64,000 nucleotides of DNA from Spirochaetia bacterium (GCA_963662795.1 OY759746.1:2880001-2944000), one strand, 5' to 3'; positions 32,242-41,623 are shown, counted from the stretch's first letter. Notes: a model not told the origin generated them from the sequence alone. Program-made: numbers and translations.

Positions 32242-33816
32242 ATGGATGAGAAATTTGTTGCTGACAATAATACAGGCCGTTCAGATATTGATGAAATAAA
32301 TGAAAATCGCTCTATCTGGGAAAGAATAGTAAATTTTTTCAGTGATAACAGCCCTGATGCAAAAAAAAGAAAACTTCTTAAAGATATTCAGAAAATACTT
32401 AAAAAACATAAATTCAAGTTTATCAATGTCAGAGTAGAAGAAGCACAGCCTGCGCTGGCCAAATTTTTTTATCAGATATACAGTGTCATTGCTGTCCCGT
32501 CAAGCCTCCTTTCCGGTCAGGAATCATCCCCTGCATTGAAATACCTGTTTATTGATTATGTGCTATCGGAAAAACAAAAAACACTGATCAGCCGGCTTCA
32601 TAAGGATAATATTGAAAAACGCCTCGCAAACGGAGACAGCAGTGAAGTTGAACAGATAAAAAAAGAACTTGCTGTTCTTCTTAAATCCATAAGCGACGAA
32701 CAAAAAGGGGATATTGCCCGTTTTTACAGGCAGTATCTGGTTTTTCTCAAACTCCTTAAATTTGATTATTATTTCTTCCTTAGAAAGTTTGATTCAGGGT
32801 TTGCTGAAATGGATTTCAAGTATAAACCCGCTTTTCAGCCGATAAATTGTGACTATATTGTAGACGATCTGATAGATTTATCATCCATCTTTCCGCTTAT
32901 TCTGCGCTATGATTCCTGGAAAGAAGTATTTGAAGTACTAAAGGTTTTCAAGGGGCAGGATATCCTTTCCCGCGACGACTGGAACAAGCTCCTCAAGATT
33001 ATCGGGAGTGTCAATAATTCCGAGGTTCTTACTTATATTATAAAGCTGATTACCCGGGACCCGTTCTATACTCCATCAGCAGAAGAAAAAGTGGATGATA
33101 TTATCGAGGAATATTTTGGAAAGCTTAAAACCTCAGTAACCATGACTATCCAGAAAGTTGCTACGGAAAAGAAGAATTCACACAAAGAGTCGGTTTTAAA
33201 CCAGATTTTCGGGACAATCGCGATCAGCAGAATGAAAAACTATACTGAAGCCAATAACGGTGTGTTCAGGGCGAAAATGCTTGGCGGATATCTCTATATT
33301 GAAATTATGAATTACATGAAAGCATTCATGCTTGATTATGTAAAAAAGGATTTAATGAGAATTGTCAATTTTCTTGTTGTAAAAGCTGAATGGAAAACAA
33401 ATATTTTCAGCAAGGAAATGTCTGATGCACTTGAGGAATTGATTACTGTTTCAGACAGGATACTGGAGTTTGATCAGTCTCTGTCAGCTGATGAGGATGT
33501 CGGAGCAAAGATGAACACATTTCTGAAACGGATGACATCTGATCCAAGATATAAGGGGGAGGTTAAAAAACTTCTTCACGATATCAACAGCCAGGTCCTT
33601 GTAATGGCCCAGGATACATACCGGAACCTTACAAAAATTGCGCAAAAACTTGCGGAAATACTGCCCGAGTTTGTAGAACCTCCAAAAATGGGGATAATAA
33701 TAAACCCGGCTTTTGTTAAATCGTCTTATGGAAATGATATTGAAGCTGATATAAAAACAATCTACAAACAGATTTACTATTTTTTAAGTCTTATAAAACT
33801 GATGCTAACCAAATAG
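32242..33816 (+). CDS. Spirochaete-conserved helical protein (DUF5312-like)
   Basis: 524 aa, FDYYFFLRKFD motif; TTGACA-N18-TATTAT promoter ends 6 nt before the ATG. Confidence 0.7.
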   Translation: MDEKFVADNNTGRSDIDEINENRSIWERIVNFFSDNSPDAKKRKLLKDIQKILKKHKFKFINVRVEEAQPALAKFFYQIYSVIAVPSSLLSGQESSPALKYLFIDYVLSEKQKTLISRLHKDNIEKRLANGDSSEVEQIKKELAVLLKSISDEQKGDIARFYRQYLVFLKLLKFDYYFFLRKFDSGFAEMDFKYKPAFQPINCDYIVDDLIDLSSIFPLILRYDSWKEVFEVLKVFKGQDILSRDDWNKLLKIIGSVNNSEVLTYIIKLITRDPFYTPSAEEKVDDIIEEYFGKLKTSVTMTIQKVATEKKNSHKESVLNQIFGTIAISRMKNYTEANNGVFRAKMLGGYLYIEIMNYMKAFMLDYVKKDLMRIVNFLVVKAEWKTNIFSKEMSDALEELITVSDRILEFDQSLSADEDVGAKMNTFLKRMTSDPRYKGEVKKLLHDINSQVLVMAQDTYRNLTKIAQKLAEILPEFVEPPKMGIIINPAFVKSSYGNDIEADIKTIYKQIYYFLSLIKLMLTK

Positions 33817-33818
33817 TA

Positions 33819-34385
33819 TTATACTACATGCCTGCCTATAAGGTTTAAAAACTCCTGTCTTGTAGCAAGACTTGTCTGAAAGCTTCCAAGGACTGATGAG
33901 GTTGTCATCAGGGAGTTCTGTTTTTCAACCCCCCGCATCATCATGCAGAGATGACGGCATTCCATTACAACTCCTACTCCGTCTGCATTTACACAGTTCC
34001 TTATTTCTTTTGCTATCTGCGCAGTAAGCCTTTCCTGTATCTGCAGCCGTCTCGCATAGGTTTCCACAATCCTTGCTATTTTACTGACCCCGATTACCTG
34101 TTTATCAGCAATATAGCCGATATGGCATTTGCCGTAAAAAGGGAGCATGTGATGCTCACAGAGGCTGTAAACCTCAATATCCCGCAGTATTATCATATTG
34201 TTTGCTTCTGAAGAAAATACTGCGCCGTTCACAACATCATCGATATTTTCATGGTAGCCCTTTGTAAGGAATGCGATTGCATCAGTAAAGCGCTCCGGTG
34301 TTTTTAAAAGACCTTCGCGGTCAGGATCCTCTCCTATTTCAATAAGCAGCTGATGTATCAGTTCTTTGACTCGTTCTTTGTCCAT
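33819..34385 (-). CDS. folE: GTP cyclohydrolase I
   Basis: IGEDPDREGLLKTPER, SLCEHHMLPF, ARRLQIQERLT, HLCMMMRGV. Confidence 0.98.
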   Translation of the reverse strand: MDKERVKELIHQLLIEIGEDPDREGLLKTPERFTDAIAFLTKGYHENIDDVVNGAVFSSEANNMIILRDIEVYSLCEHHMLPFYGKCHIGYIADKQVIGVSKIARIVETYARRLQIQERLTAQIAKEIRNCVNADGVGVVMECRHLCMMMRGVEKQNSLMTTSSVLGSFQTSLATRQEFLNLIGRHVV

Positions 34386-34487
34386 GGATGCAATAATAAC
34401 AGCAATAATTTATTATTAGAAGTACTTTTTTGATACTTGATTGACCCTGCTTGATTCAGGACGGTTAAAACCTTAAAACCCAAGGGC

Positions 34488-35414
34488 TTAATTGTTTTTT
34501 GATTCAAATGCTTTTATGAAAAGCAGAAGTATCCTGTTGACTGAAATGCAGGAGGACAGGTCCTTTTCCAGTATTTTATCTATATATCCGTTTATATCTT
34601 CTATTTCTGTTTTTCTTCCGGAAAGAATATCCTGCAGCATGGAAGATTTATTTGCAGCAGTATTTTCTGCGACACTCAGAACCGACCGGTAGACAGCTTC
34701 TTCTTCAAGCCTGATATTCCTTAAAGCTGCGGCTGTGCAGACCTCTTTTACTGTCATTCGGATAATATTCTTCAGGTGAGAATTTTCAGCTGTAAATCCG
34801 TTACTGCATCCTGTGATAGCGGTTAGAGGATTAATCGCGGCATTTACCGCAAGTTTTTTCCAGATAAGCTTATCCGGATTATCTGTATAAGCAGCTTTTA
34901 AACCTGCCGTGCTAAGGGCTTTAATAAGCGGCATCAGCTTTTCTTTCTGCCCGGTACTGCCCGTCATCCCGATTTTCGTCTTCCCTTTTCCTCCGTGGAC
35001 TATACGGGAAGGCTCAAGGAAAAACGCTCCTTCCGTAGTTGTCCCGGAAGCAGTCCTTTCCCTGCCGAAAAAGCGTGAAATAGCCTCTGCATTGCCGGAT
35101 CCGTTTTGAAAAGTAACAGCAATGGAATTTTTACCGGCAAAACCTGAAACAGTTTCCGCCGCTTCCAGTGTGGAGTAGGATTTTACACAGAAGAGGTAAA
35201 AATCAGCACCCCTTAAGTCAGAAGAAAGAACTCCAGCCGGGTGAGAATGCAGTATTACGGCCCCTGAAGGAGAAAGAACTGTTATCCCGTTATCCCTTAT
35301 TGCTTCTGCCCGCGGCCTGTCTTTATCTGTAATCAGGACATTATAACCTGCCTTTGCAAGGTATGCCGCAAAAAGCGACCCCGCAGCGCCGGCTCCTATA
35401 ATTGCTATAGTCAT
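34488..35414 (-). CDS. panE: Ketopantoate reductase
   Basis: IIGAGAAGS, CVKSY, FQNG, WKKLAVNAAINPLTA, NKSSMLQD...KTEIEDING. Confidence 0.95.
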   Translation of the reverse strand: MTIAIIGAGAAGSLFAAYLAKAGYNVLITDKDRPRAEAIRDNGITVLSPSGAVILHSHPAGVLSSDLRGADFYLFCVKSYSTLEAAETVSGFAGKNSIAVTFQNGSGNAEAISRFFGRERTASGTTTEGAFFLEPSRIVHGGKGKTKIGMTGSTGQKEKLMPLIKALSTAGLKAAYTDNPDKLIWKKLAVNAAINPLTAITGCSNGFTAENSHLKNIIRMTVKEVCTAAALRNIRLEEEAVYRSVLSVAENTAANKSSMLQDILSGRKTEIEDINGYIDKILEKDLSSCISVNRILLLFIKAFESKNN

Positions 35415-35495
35415 ATAACATACTATAGCAGATATGATTTTACTGGAAAACTATCTGTTGAATAAATGAATGATTTATTGGATAATCTGTTTTGT

Positions 35496-36449
35496 ATGAA
35501 ACGGGTAACTGCATTTTCTCCCGGGCATGTAACCGGGCTTTTTTATATGAGAGACCTTGAAGATGACCCTCTTTACTGCGGGTCTCTCGGCGCCGGATTT
35601 TCCATTGTCAAGGGAGCACAGACAGCCGTGAGCCTCTTCAGCCGGAAACAAAAAGTAAATGATATATCAATAAACAGCATAAAAAGTTCTGATACCCCGG
35701 TAAGCGTTAAAATACTGGAGCTCTTTTTTAATAAAACCGGTATTGCCGGCGAAGGACTCAAGGTAGAGCATAAAATAGAAACTCCCCAGGGAGCAGGATT
35801 CGGTTCAAGCGGAGCAGGCGCTCTCAGCCTTGTGTTTGCCCTGAACAGACTTTACGGTGACCCTTTAAGCGGCCTGCAGGCTTCGCAGATAGCCCATTCT
35901 GCTGAAGTGCTGTGTAAAACCGGCCTCGGCACTGTAATGGGTGAGACACTCGGCGGGGTAAAAATACTTGTCAAACCCGGAGCCCCCGGGATTGGCGCGA
36001 CAGTTTCAATTCCATATCCTGAAGGACTTTATGCGATGTTTGTCGTATACGGTCCTCTTTCAACCCGGGATGCGCTTTCCGACCCTGATATAAGAAGGAA
36101 AATCACCGGGGGAGGGAAGAAATATCACTCGCTGATTAAAAAAACTCCTGATTTTGCCAGTTTTTTAAAATACTCAAGGGAATTTGCCGAGAGCACGGGA
36201 ATAATTCCTGTCAGCGTCAGAAAGATAATGGATAAACTCGATAAAAACAAAATCAACTGCAGTATGCTGATGTTCGGAGAAGGCACTTTTTCCATTTTTT
36301 CAAAAAGCGATTTACCGGTTATAAAAAAAATTGCCGAGGGAATAATCGAAGAACTTAAGATTGAAAGCCCTGCGAATTTTATAAAAAAACCGTATCTTTT
36401 TTTCTCAAATATTGCAAAGGGAGGAGTAAGCATTGTCAGCGAGGATTAA
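35496..36449 (+). CDS. pok: Pantoate kinase (archaeal type, GHMP kinase fold)
   Basis: AFSPGHVTGLF, GSLGAG, PQGAGFGSSGAGAL GHMP ATP loop, AHSAEV...TGLG, KPGAPGIG, SMLMFGE; directly upstream of PPS. ORF extends to 35466. Confidence 0.88.
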   Translation: MKRVTAFSPGHVTGLFYMRDLEDDPLYCGSLGAGFSIVKGAQTAVSLFSRKQKVNDISINSIKSSDTPVSVKILELFFNKTGIAGEGLKVEHKIETPQGAGFGSSGAGALSLVFALNRLYGDPLSGLQASQIAHSAEVLCKTGLGTVMGETLGGVKILVKPGAPGIGATVSIPYPEGLYAMFVVYGPLSTRDALSDPDIRRKITGGGKKYHSLIKKTPDFASFLKYSREFAESTGIIPVSVRKIMDKLDKNKINCSMLMFGEGTFSIFSKSDLPVIKKIAEGIIEELKIESPANFIKKPYLFFSNIAKGGVSIVSED

Positions 36450-37221
36450 TATTCCTGAAAACCATCCAAGGTATAAAGCAATGATGATAAGGGAAAGCCT
36501 TATAAGGGGCTGTGAGGAAAAGATTGTCGCGCCTGCAGGGCTTATTGCCCAGGGAAGGGGGGAGGCGTTTGACTACCTTTTGGGAGAACAGACTGCGGAT
36601 TTTGCTATCCAGGCTATAAACGCCGCGGCAGCCGCGTTTCTTCTGGCAGAGCATCCGGTAATTTCTGTTAACGGAAATACCGCTGTACTTGTCCCTGAAG
36701 AGTTTGTAAGGCTTTCCCGGGTGTCTGGCGCTCCGCTTGAGATAAATCTTTTTTACCGGCAGCCGGGGCGGGAAGAGGCAATCCTTAAAGTACTCCGCAG
36801 GGCAGGAGCGGAAAAGGTTCTGGGCGTAAGCGGAAAAAGTGAGATTATTAAAGAACTTACAAGCGACAGGAGGATAGTTGACCCTGAAGGGATATTCAAG
36901 GCGGATATGGTTTTTGTCCCTCTTGAAGACGGGGACAGGACAGAGGCTCTTGTCGCTCTCGGTAAAAGAGTTGTTACTGTTGACTTAAATCCCCTGTCAA
37001 GGACGCCTAACAGGGCACATGTTTCAATAATTGACAATATAACAAGAGCAGTTCCCCTTTTGTGCGAATATATTATAAAATACAAGGGTAAAAGCAGGGA
37101 TGAACTTGAAAACATTTACAGTTCCTTCAATAACATTGAGATGCTGAAAAAATCCCTTCTTTTTATTTCGGAAAGGCTGATTATGCTTTCCGGGGAGATG
37201 AAAACAGGAAATGGGAAATAA
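36433..37221 (+). CDS. pps: 4-phosphopantoate--beta-alanine ligase (phosphopantothenate synthetase, archaeal COG1701 type)
   Basis: IPENHPRY, GLIAQGRGEAFDYLLGE, PVISVNGN, EINLFYR, VPLEDGDRTEAL, VDLNPLSRT, IIDNITRA. Confidence 0.95.
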   Translation: MSARINIPENHPRYKAMMIRESLIRGCEEKIVAPAGLIAQGRGEAFDYLLGEQTADFAIQAINAAAAAFLLAEHPVISVNGNTAVLVPEEFVRLSRVSGAPLEINLFYRQPGREEAILKVLRRAGAEKVLGVSGKSEIIKELTSDRRIVDPEGIFKADMVFVPLEDGDRTEALVALGKRVVTVDLNPLSRTPNRAHVSIIDNITRAVPLLCEYIIKYKGKSRDELENIYSSFNNIEMLKKSLLFISERLIMLSGEMKTGNGK

Positions 37222-38485
37222 AAGACATCCTTCTTTTGATATAACAGGTTCGATTTCAGGCCGCCTTGCAGGTAAAAAGATTATACTCTGCGTTACAGGA
37301 AGTGTGGCGGCGGTAAGATCGCCTGACCTTGCAAGGCTTTTTATGAGGCACGGCGCAGACGTTTATCCCGTAATGAGCTCATCGGCATGCGGCATAATCC
37401 ACCCGGACCTGATGCACTGGGCTGCGGGAAGAAAACCGGTTACTGAGCTTACGGGAAGTATAGAGCATGTAGAGCTTGCCGGAAACACCGGTACAAGGGC
37501 AGACCTCCTCGTTGTCGCGCCGTGCACGGCAAACACAATCGGAAAGATGGCCGGCGGAATAGACGACACTCCGGTAACTACTTTTGCAACAACAGCCATA
37601 GGGGAAGGGATTCCCCTTATTGTGGTGCCGGCAATGCATGAGCCGATGTACCATCATCCCTTTGTTGAAGAGAACATTAAAAAGCTTGTTTCCGCGGGAA
37701 TCCGTGTTATGCAGCCCCGCCTTGAGGAGGGAAAGGCTAAAATTCCGGAGAACGAAGAGATACTTGGTGAAGTCCTGAAACTTCTTGCCCCGTCCGTGCA
37801 GATTCTCAGCGGGAAAAAAGTCCTTGTTACGGCAGGAAGGACTGTCGAATATATAGATCCTGTACGGGTAATCAGCAATAACTCAACCGGAAAGATGGGG
37901 GTTGCGCTTGCAGAGAAAGCTTGTGAAGCCGGAGCTGATGTTACGCTTATTGCAGGCAAAATTACTGTAAAGCCCGCATCCGGGATCAGGGTAATCCATG
38001 CTGAAACCGCACTTGAGATGGCAGGGGCTGTCGGGAAAGAACTTGACAGCGGAAGATATGATATCTTTGCCGCTGCCGCGGCTGTAGGAGACTGGCAGCC
38101 TGATGAAAAATCAGCGGTAAAGATATCCACTCATGACAATGATTCGCTTGTATTAAAGCTTAAACCTACCCCCAAAATTATTGACAGGATAAAGAAAAAA
38201 TATCCGTCAGTTTTTCTTCTTGCGTTCCGTGCGCTTTATGCCCTGAAGGAATCAGACCTGCTTGATAACGCAAGATGGAGAATGGAAAAAGCCGGTGCGG
38301 ACATGATTGCTGTAAATGATGTTTCCAAAAAAGGAGCGGGGTTTGAATCTGAAACAAATGAAATGTATATTATTACAAAAGAGGGAATACTCGAGAAGAT
38401 CCCCATGGCTTCAAAACATGAGGTAGCAGCGGATATAGTAAGGATAATAGCGCGGGAGATATCGGCTGGAAAACCTGTAGCGTAA
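37211..38485 (+). CDS. coaBC: Bifunctional phosphopantothenoylcysteine decarboxylase/ligase
   Basis: VTGSVAA, VVAPCTANTIGK, VPAMH, VLVTAG...IDPVRVISNNSTGKMG, AAAVGDW; archaeal-style HPSFDITGS N-terminus. Confidence 0.95.
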   Translation: MGNKRHPSFDITGSISGRLAGKKIILCVTGSVAAVRSPDLARLFMRHGADVYPVMSSSACGIIHPDLMHWAAGRKPVTELTGSIEHVELAGNTGTRADLLVVAPCTANTIGKMAGGIDDTPVTTFATTAIGEGIPLIVVPAMHEPMYHHPFVEENIKKLVSAGIRVMQPRLEEGKAKIPENEEILGEVLKLLAPSVQILSGKKVLVTAGRTVEYIDPVRVISNNSTGKMGVALAEKACEAGADVTLIAGKITVKPASGIRVIHAETALEMAGAVGKELDSGRYDIFAAAAAVGDWQPDEKSAVKISTHDNDSLVLKLKPTPKIIDRIKKKYPSVFLLAFRALYALKESDLLDNARWRMEKAGADMIAVNDVSKKGAGFESETNEMYIITKEGILEKIPMASKHEVAADIVRIIAREISAGKPVA

Positions 38486-38528
38486 AAATACGGCTGCTAA
38501 AAAATTTGATCCAAGGAATATAAAAGAT

Positions 38529-39383
38529 ATGAAAAACAGGGATAAGAAAAAATATCTTACAGATGATTATCTGGAAATGAAGAAGAAAAAAGAAAAGATA
38601 ACAATGCTCACCGCCTACTCATATCCTCAGGCTCTTGTGGCTGAAGAAGCGGGAATTGACTGTATACTAGTCGGTGATTCTCTTGGAATGGTTGAACTCG
38701 GTTACAGCAGTACAGTTCCTGTGACAATGGAAGATATGCTTCTCCATTTAAAGGCTGTTGTCCGCGGAGCGCCCCATACACACATAATCGTTGACATGCC
38801 TTTCATGAGCTACAATATATCAATTGAACAGGCAATTGCAAACGCAGGGGTTCTTTATCAGGGCGGCGGGGCAGATTCCGTAAAACTGGAAGGGGGCCAA
38901 AACAGCGCAAAAGTTATTAACGCTGTCTGCAGAGCAGGAATACCGGTATGTGCCCATATCGGACTTACACCCCAGACTGCATCCCTGCTTGGAGGATACA
39001 AGGTTCAGGGTAAAACACTTGATGCTGCCAAAAAACTTGTAGATGATGCCCTTGCGGTTGAAGATGCGGGCGCTTTCATGATAGTACTTGAAGCAATACC
39101 TATGAATCTTGCAGCAGTAATTACTGAAAAACTCGCAATTCCGACTGTTGGAATAGGGGGCGGGGTAAATTGTGACGGACAGGTGCTGGTTTTCCACGAT
39201 TTGATGGGACTTTACAAACAATTTACACCTAAATTTGTGAAAGTATACGCACAGATTCATGATGTCATGAAAAATGCCATAAAGAATTACGCAGAGGATG
39301 TCAGGGCAGGCAGGTTTCCTGCTGAAGAACACTCATTTACCATGAAAGATGATATAATTGAGAAGCTGTTAAAGATTTTATAA
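38529..39383 (+). CDS. panB: 3-methyl-2-oxobutanoate hydroxymethyltransferase
   Basis: ITMLTAY, ILVGDSLGM, VDMPFMSY, VKLEGG, HIGLTPQ, DGQVLVFHD. Confidence 0.98.
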   Translation: MKNRDKKKYLTDDYLEMKKKKEKITMLTAYSYPQALVAEEAGIDCILVGDSLGMVELGYSSTVPVTMEDMLLHLKAVVRGAPHTHIIVDMPFMSYNISIEQAIANAGVLYQGGGADSVKLEGGQNSAKVINAVCRAGIPVCAHIGLTPQTASLLGGYKVQGKTLDAAKKLVDDALAVEDAGAFMIVLEAIPMNLAAVITEKLAIPTVGIGGGVNCDGQVLVFHDLMGLYKQFTPKFVKVYAQIHDVMKNAIKNYAEDVRAGRFPAEEHSFTMKDDIIEKLLKIL

Positions 39384-39434
39384 TTTAGATTCGGCTGAAT
39401 ATGCAAAATCAGGATTAAACACCACGGAGAATAT

Positions 39435-40337
39435 ATGCCTGCAAAAATAATAAGCGGATATGAGGTGAGAGAGGAAATTCTCTCCCTGGTACGGAAGGAA
39501 ACAGAAGAAATCAGGGAAAAATACGGTAAGGTACCCGGACTTGCAACAATCCTTGTCGGAGATGATCCGGGATCTGTATCCTATGTCAGGCTTAAAATAC
39601 AGACAGCCGGCAGTCTCGGTTTCAGGGAAGTGCAGGTTAATCTATCTGAAAACACTACCGAGAAAGAACTTCTTGATATAATTGAAAAATACAACTGCGA
39701 TGATAACATCCATGGAATACTTGTGCAGCTTCCTCTTCCTCATCACATAAATGAAAAAAAAATTATCTATTCCATAAATCCTGACAAGGATGTTGACTGC
39801 TTTCACCCGATAAATGTCGGTAAAATGGTTTTAGGGTGCAGTGAATCAAGATTTAATCCGTGTACTCCGGCAGGAATAATTGAACTTATCAGGAAAACAG
39901 GAATTCCCCTATCCGGAGCTGAAGTAGCTGTAATCGGGAGATCCAATATTGTAGGGAAACCCCTCGCAAACATGCTTATCCAGAAGGCGCATAACTCTAC
40001 AGTTACAGTGCTTCATACCGGATCAAAAGATCTTGAATATCACTGCAGAAGAGCGGATATTGTTGTCGCTGCAGCCGGATGCCCCGGACTTGTTAAACCG
40101 CAGTGGATAAAACCGGGCGCCTGCGTGATTGATGTCGGTACAAACAGGATCGGCGATAAGATAAGCAAAAAAACAGGAAAAAAGATTGCGATTTTAAGAG
40201 GTGATGTCGATTTCGAAGAGGTTTCAAAGATTGCAGGCTATATAACACCTGTTCCAGGCGGTGTCGGCCCCATGACAATAACAATGCTGATGAAAAATAC
40301 ACTTGAATCACTCAAACATACACTCGGTCTTGTTTAG
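39435..40337 (+). CDS. folD: Methylenetetrahydrofolate dehydrogenase/cyclohydrolase
   Basis: PGLATILVG, HGILVQLPLP, KDVDCFHP, PCTPAG, GRSNIVGKP, TPVPGGVGPMT. Confidence 0.98.
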   Translation: MPAKIISGYEVREEILSLVRKETEEIREKYGKVPGLATILVGDDPGSVSYVRLKIQTAGSLGFREVQVNLSENTTEKELLDIIEKYNCDDNIHGILVQLPLPHHINEKKIIYSINPDKDVDCFHPINVGKMVLGCSESRFNPCTPAGIIELIRKTGIPLSGAEVAVIGRSNIVGKPLANMLIQKAHNSTVTVLHTGSKDLEYHCRRADIVVAAAGCPGLVKPQWIKPGACVIDVGTNRIGDKISKKTGKKIAILRGDVDFEEVSKIAGYITPVPGGVGPMTITMLMKNTLESLKHTLGLV

Positions 40338-40343
40338 GTGTTT

Positions 40344-40370
40344 TGATGCAGGAGATTCTCCCCTGCATCA
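40344..40370. terminator. Hairpin between convergent folD and beta-barrel gene
   Basis: TGATGCAGG-N9-CCTGCATCA. Confidence 0.65.
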
Positions 40371-40372
40371 GT

Positions 40373-40918
40373 TTAGAATACATATCTGATACCAATTGCC
40401 CCTGAGCCTGAAAATCCCGTATCCGGTGTTACCTCGAGACCTGCACCCACTTCAATATAAACGTTAAGCGGTTCGTCTGCGAATGTATGTTCAAGCCTTA
40501 AAACCCCCAGAACATCTGTTCTTAATTTATCACCTGTCCTTAAATAAACAGCCGGGCCGAAAGAAAGGGGAAATACATTATCCTTAATTACAATATCTGC
40601 AAGAGTGAAAAGGGCGTTTCCGCCCAGTGCCAGCTCATCAAAAGAATACAAACCAAGCACCGCGTTGAATTCGATCAGGTTTGTCATCTGGTATCCGAAT
40701 GTGATTCCGGTCGGATAGCCGAGTGACAGTCCTATTTTACCTTTTCCTTCAAGCTTTTCCTCAAGCTTATCAAGATTTATATCTTTATTGCTTTTTCCCG
40801 CTTCCAGCTTCCCAGGCTGGATATTAGCGTCCTGACTACGGTAGCTGCTTTCGGCATATACTGCTGTCAGCGACGCTGTTAAAAGAAATATTATCATAAG
40901 TAAAGCGGATTTTTTCAT
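40373..40918 (-). CDS. Small outer-membrane beta-barrel protein (DUF3996-like)
   Basis: Signal peptide; IGLSLGYPTGITF...PLNVYIEVG...GAIGIRYVF with terminal Phe. Confidence 0.7.
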   Translation of the reverse strand: MKKSALLMIIFLLTASLTAVYAESSYRSQDANIQPGKLEAGKSNKDINLDKLEEKLEGKGKIGLSLGYPTGITFGYQMTNLIEFNAVLGLYSFDELALGGNALFTLADIVIKDNVFPLSFGPAVYLRTGDKLRTDVLGVLRLEHTFADEPLNVYIEVGAGLEVTPDTGFSGSGAIGIRYVF

Positions 40919-40990: not shown

Positions 40991-41623
40991 TCAGTTTCTG
41001 TCTGCGGTCAAAATTTCAAACAGTAATTTAAGAGGAATCCGCCCGTCTGTGTCTTTACCGGGCTGATAATGATTTTTATCGCTGAAATCCTTGTTTATTC
41101 TGTAAAGCGAAGAGTTTACCATGTCAAGGTCTATGGCAAATTCAGTGTCAAATTCAAAATCATCATCAACTGCGGTAAAATTAAGCCCGCAGACAGCTAG
41201 TGTATAATTTTCAGGGTATTCAGAATAATACAGAAGCGGAAGCCCCTGGGTCCTGCATATAACAGGCCTGTGCCGGTATATCGAACAGGCAGAGTTGTTG
41301 AGGAAGATGCAGCTTTCAGGTTCCGTATCGATGTTTCCATCCGGTTCAGATGAAGCATATTCTGTTTTTACGCTTCTGCTGGCAGTGCATCGGCCGGAAA
41401 AGCCATCGAAAAGACCGGGAGGCAGTTTTTTATCCTCAAGTTCTTTTTTTATGGCATAAAATTCAACAGGCATCAGGGAAATTGGTATGCAGCAGGAGGA
41501 ACAGCCTGACCGGCATATAATATTGTCAGCGTAATATGCAGTAATTACTGCGGCTTTACTGTCAATTTTATCCCGCAGTGCAAAATAGTCATGAAAATAA
41601 TTGTTCTTCAGACAATACTCCAC
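40991..41623 (-). CDS. YkgJ-family cysteine-cluster protein
   Basis: CRSGCSSCC...CIFL...CSIYRHRPVICR. Confidence 0.9.
   Translation of the reverse strand: MEYCLKNNYFHDYFALRDKIDSKAAVITAYYADNIICRSGCSSCCIPISLMPVEFYAIKKELEDKKLPPGLFDGFSGRCTASRSVKTEYASSEPDGNIDTEPESCIFLNNSACSIYRHRPVICRTQGLPLLYYSEYPENYTLAVCGLNFTAVDDDFEFDTEFAIDLDMVNSSLYRINKDFSDKNHYQPGKDTDGRIPLKLLFEILTADRN

Follow-up and report, generated by a model that had tools for sequence, protein, structure and literature searches.

By which route does a spirochaete build coenzyme A (CoA) when searches of its genome recover neither pantothenate synthetase (PanC) nor a true CoaA- or CoaX-type pantothenate kinase (PanK)? The question is raised by a gene cluster at positions 34488-39383 of a 64,000-nt stretch of DNA from a Spirochaetia bacterium (OY759746.1:2880001-2944000), in the following called the window, within which all positions are counted. 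In this cluster, panE for 2-dehydropantoate 2-reductase (KPR; 34488-35414, minus strand) is divergent from three overlapping genes on the plus strand, namely pok for a pantoate kinase-like GHMP kinase (PoK; 35466-36449), pps for 4-phosphopantoate--beta-alanine ligase, also termed phosphopantothenate synthetase (PPS; 36433-37221, with a TTG start), and coaBC for an archaeal-type bifunctional phosphopantothenoylcysteine synthetase/decarboxylase (PPCS/PPCDC; 37211-38485). Downstream of these follows panB for ketopantoate hydroxymethyltransferase (38529-39383, plus strand). An earlier note, made from the sequence of the window alone, had described this arrangement, and the open reading frame (ORF) list places all five genes where that note had put them, with overlaps of 17 nt between pok and pps and of 11 nt between pps and coaBC. 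We consider it about 85% probable that the encoded enzymes follow the archaeal order of reactions, in which PoK acts before PPS, and that they feed the bacterial enzymes CoaD and CoaE.

Mechanistically, PanB and PanE would convert 2-oxoisovalerate to pantoate, PoK would phosphorylate the pantoate, PPS would join the resulting 4-phosphopantoate to beta-alanine to give 4'-phosphopantothenate, and the archaeal-type CoaBC would add cysteine and then decarboxylate, after which bacterial-type CoaD and CoaE would complete CoA. As far as can be recognised from sequence, the cluster encodes the only way in which this spirochaete would turn pantoate into 4'-phosphopantetheine. The genes pok, pps and coaBC would derive from an archaeal coaBC-pok-pps cluster that reached an ancestor within the class Spirochaetia, and later vertical inheritance in the window's clade would have kept them standing in for PanC and PanK. 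The comparisons described below show the identities of the genes, the failure to find the bacterial ones, the archaeal affinity of all three proteins, the conserved synteny and the continuity of the assembly; from these we infer what the enzymes do, whether the genes are co-transcribed, any regulation, and in which direction and how often they were transferred.

The PPS assignment is carried by profile, structure and residue comparisons. The protein scores 226.9 bits on PF02006 (cut-off 26.4) and 337.7 bits on NF010324 (cut-off 227), and its residues 5-255 align to residues 2-252 of the Thermococcus kodakarensis enzyme 3wdk with 246.7 bits. All six motifs that the earlier note had named as the PPS signature set, among them HPRY, SVNGN, EINLF, VPLEDGDR and DLNPLSR, are present. 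For the residue comparison, we used 32 archaeal PPS, of which 30 come from the phylum of a Methanosarcinaceae metagenome-assembled genome (MAG), one is Lokiarchaeota-named and one Thorarchaeota-named. This set has 85 columns with a conservation of at least 90%, and the spirochaete PPS is identical in 77 of them; among the eight differences, seven are conservative exchanges and one is a Lys for Gly at position 30. The enzyme would be expected to ligate 4-phosphopantoate, and not pantoate, with beta-alanine.

In case of PoK, the best NCBIfam models are NF041122 (146.1 bits) and NF040725 (139.7 bits), both of which are pantoate kinase equivalogs. The runner-up family is mevalonate kinase with 27.1 bits, which leaves the pantoate kinase models more than 110 bits ahead, and among solved structures the pantoate kinase 6jbc reaches 136.8 bits and the next structure, a homoserine kinase, 28.3 bits. 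The PGHVTG motif and the GHMP loop described in the earlier note are both found. Searches with hidden Markov models, which that note had proposed as a check, and matches to solved structures identify both families, with PoK staying under the curated cut-offs. A HMMER search of the full library gave PoK homologues whose alignments begin only at query residue 11, which makes the ATG at 35496 the probable start of pok. In a comparison with 139 homologues (cluster representatives of 270-340 aa), 41 columns have a conservation of at least 85%, and PoK agrees with the consensus in 40 of them; the residues kept, which comprise an invariant Ser and an invariant His, include S105, H134 and E137. The residue equivalent to D143 of T. 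kodakarensis was considered as a missing catalytic residue and dismissed, because the commonest residue in this column is Thr (91/139), as in the window.

The third gene of the block, coaBC (TIGR00521, 374.1 bits; cut-off 219.7), belongs to the archaeal gene set together with pok and pps, as judged by similarity, tree position and gene order. The encoded protein was searched against 121 Spirochaetota genomes and against 81 genomes of one archaeal phylum, so that only one phylum was sampled on each side. It matched 97 of the 121 Spirochaetota genomes, its own included, with a best match outside its own genome of 37% identity and 191.7 bits, and 80 of the 81 archaeal genomes with 37-50% identity and 196.8-365.5 bits, mostly from query residue 2-6 onwards. 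A tree of 82 rows was calculated from the window protein, its counterparts in six MAG loci that are described below, 29 other Spirochaetota, 26 archaea and 20 database matches (every sixth of P0272-P0390 under 520 aa). In this tree, a branch of length 1.58 with a support of 100 in the SH-like approximate likelihood ratio test (SH-aLRT) parts the 29 other Spirochaetota from the archaea and the window's clade. Beyond this branch, the 26 archaeal rows form one clade (97) and the window lies in a clade of 27 rows (99), which is the sister of the sampled archaeal phylum and is not nested within it. The archaeal-style N-terminal extension that the earlier note had read as HPSxDI is real: the window protein has HPSFDI, and the motif HP[ST]xDI (or HP[ST]x[DW]I) occurs in the window's clade and in all six printed archaeal CoaBC, while it is missing from the five printed CoaBC of other Spirochaetota.

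Gene order agrees with this affiliation. In archaeal loci centred on coaBC, pok lies directly downstream in 23 of 26 cases, and nine of these 23 also show pps before the locus ends. Altogether, the 56 archaeal loci comprise 16 with coaBC-pok-pps, 14 with coaBC-pok, six with pok-pps, 17 with pps alone and three with coaBC alone. An adjacency of pok and pps is thus found in 22 of 56 archaeal loci (16 plus six), and in all ten spirochaete loci that were examined. Two spirochaete genomes deviate with regard to coaBC: in G094 (C1:242603-249302) and G030 (C1:269417-276113), the window CoaBC matches only a CoaC-sized ORF (35% identity, residues 21-169), which lies right after panB and about 5 kb away from pok-pps, and no CoaB half was found with the window CoaBC as query.

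Does the spirochaete use this set of genes in addition to the bacterial enzymes, or instead of them? The genome is a single contig of 3,931,449 bp with an estimated completeness of 98.08 and contamination of 5.72, and profile searches of the whole of it did not find panC, coaX or panD. The sole match of the coaA model reaches 22.7 bits, compared with a cut-off of 235, and is a 392-aa protein (G000:C1:429495-430673, i.e. L001:967-2145, plus strand) with a C-terminal phosphoribulokinase (PRK)/uridine-kinase domain (PF00485, 76.4 bits) and an N-terminal part of about 180 aa without family; it stays under every NCBIfam cut-off. As type I PanK is in the same Pfam family as PRK and uridine kinase, this protein may be a salvage kinase. 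Outside the cluster, the genome has genes for a CoaD (181.5 bits) and a CoaE (92.2 bits) of bacterial type. Because panC, coaX and a true coaA were not found in a genome that consists of one contig, the archaeal-type genes appear to replace PanC and PanK and not to supplement them. The earlier note had allowed for both possibilities and had noticed the lack of panC and coaA/coaX in the cluster only; its suggestion of a replacement is supported, now for the whole genome, and that of a supplementation seems improbable.

Which findings weigh against an archaeal-type route in this organism? With 292.9 bits, PPS stays just under the cut-off of 300 of the archaeal equivalog NF041123, and PoK stays far under the curated cut-offs of its two best models, which are lineage-specific equivalog models (146.1 versus 500 and 139.7 versus 380 bits). 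Two models for type II PanK are silent in the genome, and as they are silent in all 14 control genomes too, their silence is uninformative. The group II pyridoxal phosphate (PLP)-dependent decarboxylases include the archaeal type of aspartate decarboxylase, and no source of beta-alanine was found in the genome, neither PanD nor a group II PLP decarboxylase (PF00282). A further objection concerns PoK residue 158 (counted from M11), the one exception among the 41 conserved columns, which aligns with R155 of the Thermococcus enzyme: an Arg occupies this column in 125 of 139 homologues, and the window protein has Leu instead; an Arg at this position presumably helps to bind pantoate. Leu158 is common to the six MAG loci (L012-L017) and three database representatives, and Ser is found in G030, G094 and G230. 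Position 156 covaries with position 158: of the 126 rows with Arg158, 103 carry Glu at position 156 and one carries Lys or Arg, and among the 24 rows that lack Arg158, a Lys or Arg is found there in 15. This association is overstated, as ten of the 24 are close relatives. The window PoK thus has K-x-L where the family has E-x-R, and it is possible that the exchange relocates a basic side chain.

As to beta-alanine, we observed in another part of the genome (L127:445-3999, minus strand; G000:C1:932818-936372) a PF03547 transporter, a cyclic amidohydrolase and a dihydroorotate dehydrogenase (DHODH)/PreA-like flavoprotein side by side. The amidohydrolase and the DHODH-like protein are encoded at 932818-935253. 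The amidohydrolase reaches 237 bits on the dihydropyrimidinase model (cut-off 393), and all scores of the group are under the cut-offs. Possibly, this group carries out a reductive pyrimidine breakdown that supplies beta-alanine.

The altered motif could also be read in favour of a bacterial order of reactions, in which the PPS-family enzyme makes pantothenate, the GHMP kinase phosphorylates pantothenate, and the lost Arg reflects this different substrate. Such a reading would account for a clade-specific exchange of Arg to Leu, with a Lys two residues upstream, within an otherwise family-conserved PoK motif and for the scores of PoK under the curated cut-offs; NCBIfam names NF010324 'phosphopantothenate/pantothenate synthetase', and an early report is said to have given a Methanosarcina homologue pantothenate synthetase activity. 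We nevertheless regard a bacterial order as improbable, as the conserved columns of both enzymes are kept nearly throughout (40/41 in PoK and 77/85 in PPS), as the spirochaete PoK of G159 retains the Arg, and as the characterised enzymes of Thermococcus and Methanospirillum run PoK first and PPS second, according to PMC6650551. The archaeal order, with PoK before PPS, therefore remains the preferred one. It is then a reasonable inference that free pantothenate is bypassed and that the feedback control by PanK is lacking, as the earlier note had suggested.

Another explanation for archaeal-type genes in a spirochaete would be an assembly chimera, or archaeal contamination that was binned into the genome. 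The estimated contamination of 5.72 and the GC content of the cluster (0.42-0.46), which lies at the top of the range of the window (0.36-0.46), might be taken as hints in this direction. Such an artefact is nevertheless refuted by contigs that span the locus and by the recurrence of the cluster in independent MAGs, and we assign it practically no weight. Besides the fact that the genome is a single contig, a 14,693-nt contig from run X2, which may be the source sample, covers 33800-40400 with 0 differences, and a 79,696-nt contig from run X4, which belongs to another study and carries another organism label, covers the same region with 10 differences and no gaps. The sequence is thus continuous over 33.8-40.4 kb, where the earlier note had reckoned with a possible chimera at the cluster borders. 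The proteins encoded in the flanks share 87-94% identity with their counterparts in a MAG titled Spirochaetia bacterium, which agrees with the spirochaetal nature of the flanks that had been claimed before. The GC content of the cluster was also considered as a compositional sign of recent transfer; as it lies inside the range of the window, there is no such anomaly.

A PPS scan of species-representative genomes recovered six loci in Spirochaetia/Spirochaetaceae MAGs with 72-89% identity, and one Methanosarcinaceae locus with 45%. Of the six, L012 has the order mnmL, DUF5312, folE, panE, pok, pps, coaBC, panB, folD, an outer-membrane-like ORF, the gene for a CxxCxxCC protein, and pyrC; except for the outer-membrane-like ORF, which they lack, L015 and L016 agree with this order from DUF5312 onwards, so that three of the loci include the flanks out to pyrC, and L013, L014 and L017 agree with it as far as their contigs go. 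In all six, panE is kept at its position with 46-68% identity. In L012, the flank identities (61-94%) and the cluster identities (68-89%) cover a similar range. Because cluster and flanks are alike in identity and the order is kept, these loci fit a vertical descent of the cluster within the window's clade.

How far does the trait extend beyond this clade? Among 301 genomes sampled evenly over the phylum, five have PPS, and all of these belong to the window's class; panC is found in 204 and coaX in 269 genomes of this sample, and none of the five PPS carriers has either. When the class was sampled more densely, 55 of 301 genomes from 25 of 135 genera had PPS, and among the high-quality genomes the share was 42 of 226. 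This distribution contradicts the rarity that the earlier note had implied. The occurrence differs strongly between families, with 10/19 genomes in the window's family, 3/3 in f3, 15/17 in f62, 6/6 in f79 and further positives in several others, and no PPS in f66 (0/21), f5 (0/21), f77 (0/12), f56 (0/11) and f82 (0/11) of the same sample. A class sample of 146 genomes contains 87 with coaX and 22 with panC. In this sample, the PPS-rich families are nearly devoid of coaX (f1 0/6, f3 0/3, f62 1/6, f79 0/5) and devoid of panC (0/6, 0/3, 0/6 and 0/5, respectively); the PPS-free families f60, f63, f66 and f5 have coaX in 6/6 genomes each, and f60 and f73 have panC in 5/6. There is no overlap between the 22 panC-positive and the 55 PPS-positive genomes.

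By gene content, members of the class thus fall into three states: some have the bacterial route, others the archaeal-type one, and the rest salvage or nothing that can be recognised. The separation of the first two is not perfect, which has to be counted on the negative side: G409 (f83) and G419 (f62) have PPS together with coaX over the cut-offs, so that the kinase solutions are not strictly exclusive. The estimated contamination of these genomes is 5 and 1, respectively, and panC was not seen in the tally of either family. The genus g2 of the window's family, with genomes of 1.2-1.8 Mb, has PPS in one of nine genomes, and neither panC (0/5) nor coaX (0/5) in the samples searched, which suggests that it lost the pathway along with genome reduction. 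Database names of PPS relatives include Spirochaetia and Spirochaetales MAGs and the named cultured strain Spirochaeta thermophila DSM 6578, and the PPS of G094 is identical to a protein that NCBI assigns to this strain. Annotation pipelines already name these proteins correctly, while the PPS of S. thermophila DSM 6578 is still a 'protein of unknown function DUF137' in one source.

From where, and how often, did the genes enter the spirochaetes? Archaea are the likelier donors, because PF02006 gave matches in all 81 genomes of the sampled archaeal phylum, and among 14 control genomes in none but the four archaeal ones. Most rows of the PPS, PoK and CoaBC trees carry no taxon, and the largest PPS clade described in the following, with 112 rows, is not claimed to be wholly spirochaetal. 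It appears in a PPS tree of 132 rows, where it has an SH-aLRT of 95 and contains all named or genome-derived spirochaete rows, and the Lokiarchaeota-named, Thorarchaeota-named and Methanosarcinaceae rows lie outside. In a second PPS tree, with 94 rows of which 31 are known archaeal rows, the sampled archaeal phylum forms one clade (98), the spirochaete and the Asgard-named rows share the other side, and the backbone is not resolved. As the two trees disagree on the placement of the Asgard rows, we refrained from naming a donor lineage. In the PoK tree (87 rows), the archaeal phylum stands apart (99), and the window's clade (99) joins the f3 clade with a support of 89.

The scenario of a single old transfer is weakened by the PPS and PoK backbones, which leave one transfer, several transfers and inter-bacterial spread undistinguished, and by G159 (L007, G159:C40), in which PoK and PanB are separated from the remaining spirochaete copies by very long branches (2.06 and 1.9). 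The PPS of this genome is ordinary, and its PoK is the one examined spirochaete PoK with the conserved Arg. Several independent arrivals in spirochaetes, or a spread among bacteria, could thus stand in the place of one old block transfer followed by losses. The patchy distribution (55/301, with families at 15/17 and 6/6 beside others at 0/21), the distant PoK of G159, the different cluster architecture of G030 and G094 with the CoaC-sized piece at panB, the Asgard-named PPS among spirochaete rows in one tree, and the identity of only 30-40% between the window PoK and the PoK of the spirochaete loci L007-L010 would all be explained in this way. In the opposite direction argue the single PPS clade of the spirochaetes, the grouping of the PoKs of the window's clade and of f3, and the invariable adjacency of pok and pps in the spirochaete loci. 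We regard several arrivals as a real possibility at somewhat less than even odds. The most far-reaching version of a single transfer is no more than tentative and stands at similar odds: a coaBC-pok-pps operon would have been acquired once, early in the Spirochaetia, from a donor nearer to Asgard archaea than to the Methanosarcina phylum, would have displaced the bacterial PanC, PanK and CoaBC and left the class in its three states, and the K-x-L of PoK would represent a re-made pantoate-binding site.

Of the two genes that supply pantoate, panB shows no such affiliation with archaea. PanB (PF02548, 372.7 bits; TIGR00222, 347.7 bits with a cut-off of 207.55) finds its best scores at 316.6 bits and up to 53% identity in Spirochaetota and at 305.6 bits and 56% in archaea, which is ambiguous. 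In a tree of 28 rows, the window's clade joins three other Spirochaetota PanB at 84/84, and ten archaeal rows form their own group (90/87). An archaeal origin of panB was therefore rejected, and the gene is best described as bacterial-like or ambiguous in origin, with no archaeal sign. PanE is assigned by PF02558 (120.9 bits), PF08546 (99.4 bits) and TIGR00745 (235.8 bits; cut-off 141.35). The inter-domain transfer of a three-gene block proposed in the earlier note is therefore supported by the archaeal affinity of pok, pps and coaBC and does not extend to panB; of the trees it had called for, that of CoaBC gives an archaeal placement, those of PPS and PoK leave the backbone unresolved, and that of PanB shows no archaeal placement.

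Within the block, the overlaps of stop and start codons suggest translational coupling, and a joint translation of pok, pps and coaBC is probable. Between the divergent genes panE and pok, the intergenic region (35415-35495) contains promoter-like hexamers on both strands, with sites at 35458-35486 (plus) and 35449-35422 (minus); a scan for promoters and terminators gave 18 sites in the panE/pok region compared with 13.4 (standard deviation 3.1) in shuffled sequences, which is not a clear excess. In the metatranscriptome run X23, pieces of about 90-94% similarity lie on pok, pps, coaBC and panB, and one of them spans the pok/pps overlap. These pieces are contigs from a relative; they do not show transcription in the window organism and are a weak hint at expression. 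Parts that are uncovered in X8 and X23 carry no meaning. One X23 contig with about 90% similarity to the window carries an additional 30 bases at 36345 in the 3' part of pok, which would give a 10-residue insertion in the PoK of the relative. Another variant is P0277, a protein of 724 aa with PF02006 and both CoaBC domains in one frame, i.e. a PPS-CoaBC fusion in a relative, where the two genes of the window overlap by 11 nt; as only one contig (4,692 bp) shows it, the fusion may be genuine or may result from a misread stop codon.

On both sides, the pan/coa genes are bracketed by genes of folate metabolism. Beside panE lies folE for GTP cyclohydrolase I (33819-34385, minus strand; PF01227, 238.2 bits), and directly 3' of panB lies folD (39435-40337, plus strand; PF02882, 216.6 bits, and PF00763, 127.5 bits). 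Each is found at the same position in four of the six MAG loci, folE in L012, L014, L015 and L016 with 79-94% identity and folD in L012, L015, L016 and L017 with 68-88%. PanB requires 5,10-methylene-tetrahydrofolate, and this neighbourhood may couple folate supply with pantoate synthesis; folD is a functional neighbour outside the transferred block. Further out, the genes for a 524-aa DUF5312 protein (32242-33816, plus strand; 27.0 bits) and for a 210-aa CxxCxxCC protein (40991-41623, minus strand; PF03692, 29.8 bits) are conserved flank genes that are kept in several of the related MAG loci.

How does this system relate to the ones already known? The best-studied counterpart is the route of T. 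kodakarensis, with which the spirochaete shares the same two enzyme families over nearly their full length (PPS with 3wdk, 246.7 bits; PoK with 6jbc, 136.8 bits), the same type of CoaBC, and a KPR (PanE) at an earlier step of the pathway; the sampled archaea also cluster coaBC, pok and pps. The differences are the bacterial host, the order pok-pps-coaBC in place of the archaeal coaBC-pok-pps, the K-x-L of PoK where the family has E-x-R, and a genome in which no group II PLP aspartate decarboxylase was found. Moreover, CoaD and CoaE are of bacterial type here, while PMC6650551 describes an unrelated archaeal dephospho-CoA kinase (DPCK), and it places the feedback control in Thermococcus at KPR, i.e. 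at the PanE step. Compared with the canonical pair of PanC and PanK (CoaA/CoaX), 4'-phosphopantothenate arises overall from the same inputs, namely pantoate, beta-alanine and two ATP, and PanB/PanE before and CoaD/CoaE after it are also the same, but the enzymes belong to unrelated families, the two steps would occur in reverse order, and no free pantothenate would arise as intermediate.

The occurrence of PoK and PPS in bacteria as such is not a new phenomenon. For the sponge-symbiotic Entoporibacteria, Thomes and Lescure (2020) reported PoK and PPS without PanC and PanK, and explained them by horizontal transfer (PMC7883664). Both cases have in common a bacterium with archaeal PoK and PPS and a bacterial-type DPCK, and the same source mentions sister lineages with PanC and type III PanK. 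The two cases differ in that the spirochaete has a PanE-type KPR, while none was found in Entoporibacteria and ketol-acid reductoisomerase (KARI) is proposed instead, and in that their CoaBC is listed as homologous to that of E. coli, while the one described here is archaeal-type and linked to pok-pps (PMC7883664). The present carriers belong to the phylum Spirochaetota and include the named cultured strain S. thermophila DSM 6578. According to PMC7883664, a coexistence of both routes has not been described, and here two genomes hold PPS together with coaX. What goes beyond the published case is hence the linked archaeal-type CoaBC, the presence of the trait in a fifth of a class that includes a cultured strain, and the altered PoK motif. 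The earlier note had reckoned with a widespread and already described bacterial clade; the clade is indeed widespread, and no publication on PoK/PPS in spirochaetes was found in the literature searched, from which subscription journals were largely absent. Among the papers recovered there on pantoate kinase or phosphopantoate, PMC7883664 alone is concerned with bacteria.

A paper in mBio in 2019 called PoK and PPS unique to archaea (PMC6650551), and the two enzymes had been proposed as a marker that separates the domains. After the uncultured Poribacteria, the Spirochaetia are a second and much larger bacterial group with PoK/PPS, and with a named cultured strain among the carriers, the enzymes become open to bench study. 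Annotation and metabolic models that look for panC, coaA and coaX alone would classify the carriers as pantothenate auxotrophs. This is not a new kind of biochemistry. As CoaBC is archaeal-type too, and as relatives within the class use the bacterial route or none, the Spirochaetia are a usable system for the question of how and why an essential cofactor pathway is swapped, and if the single early uptake of the operon is true, the class would offer a natural experiment on how an essential pathway is replaced.

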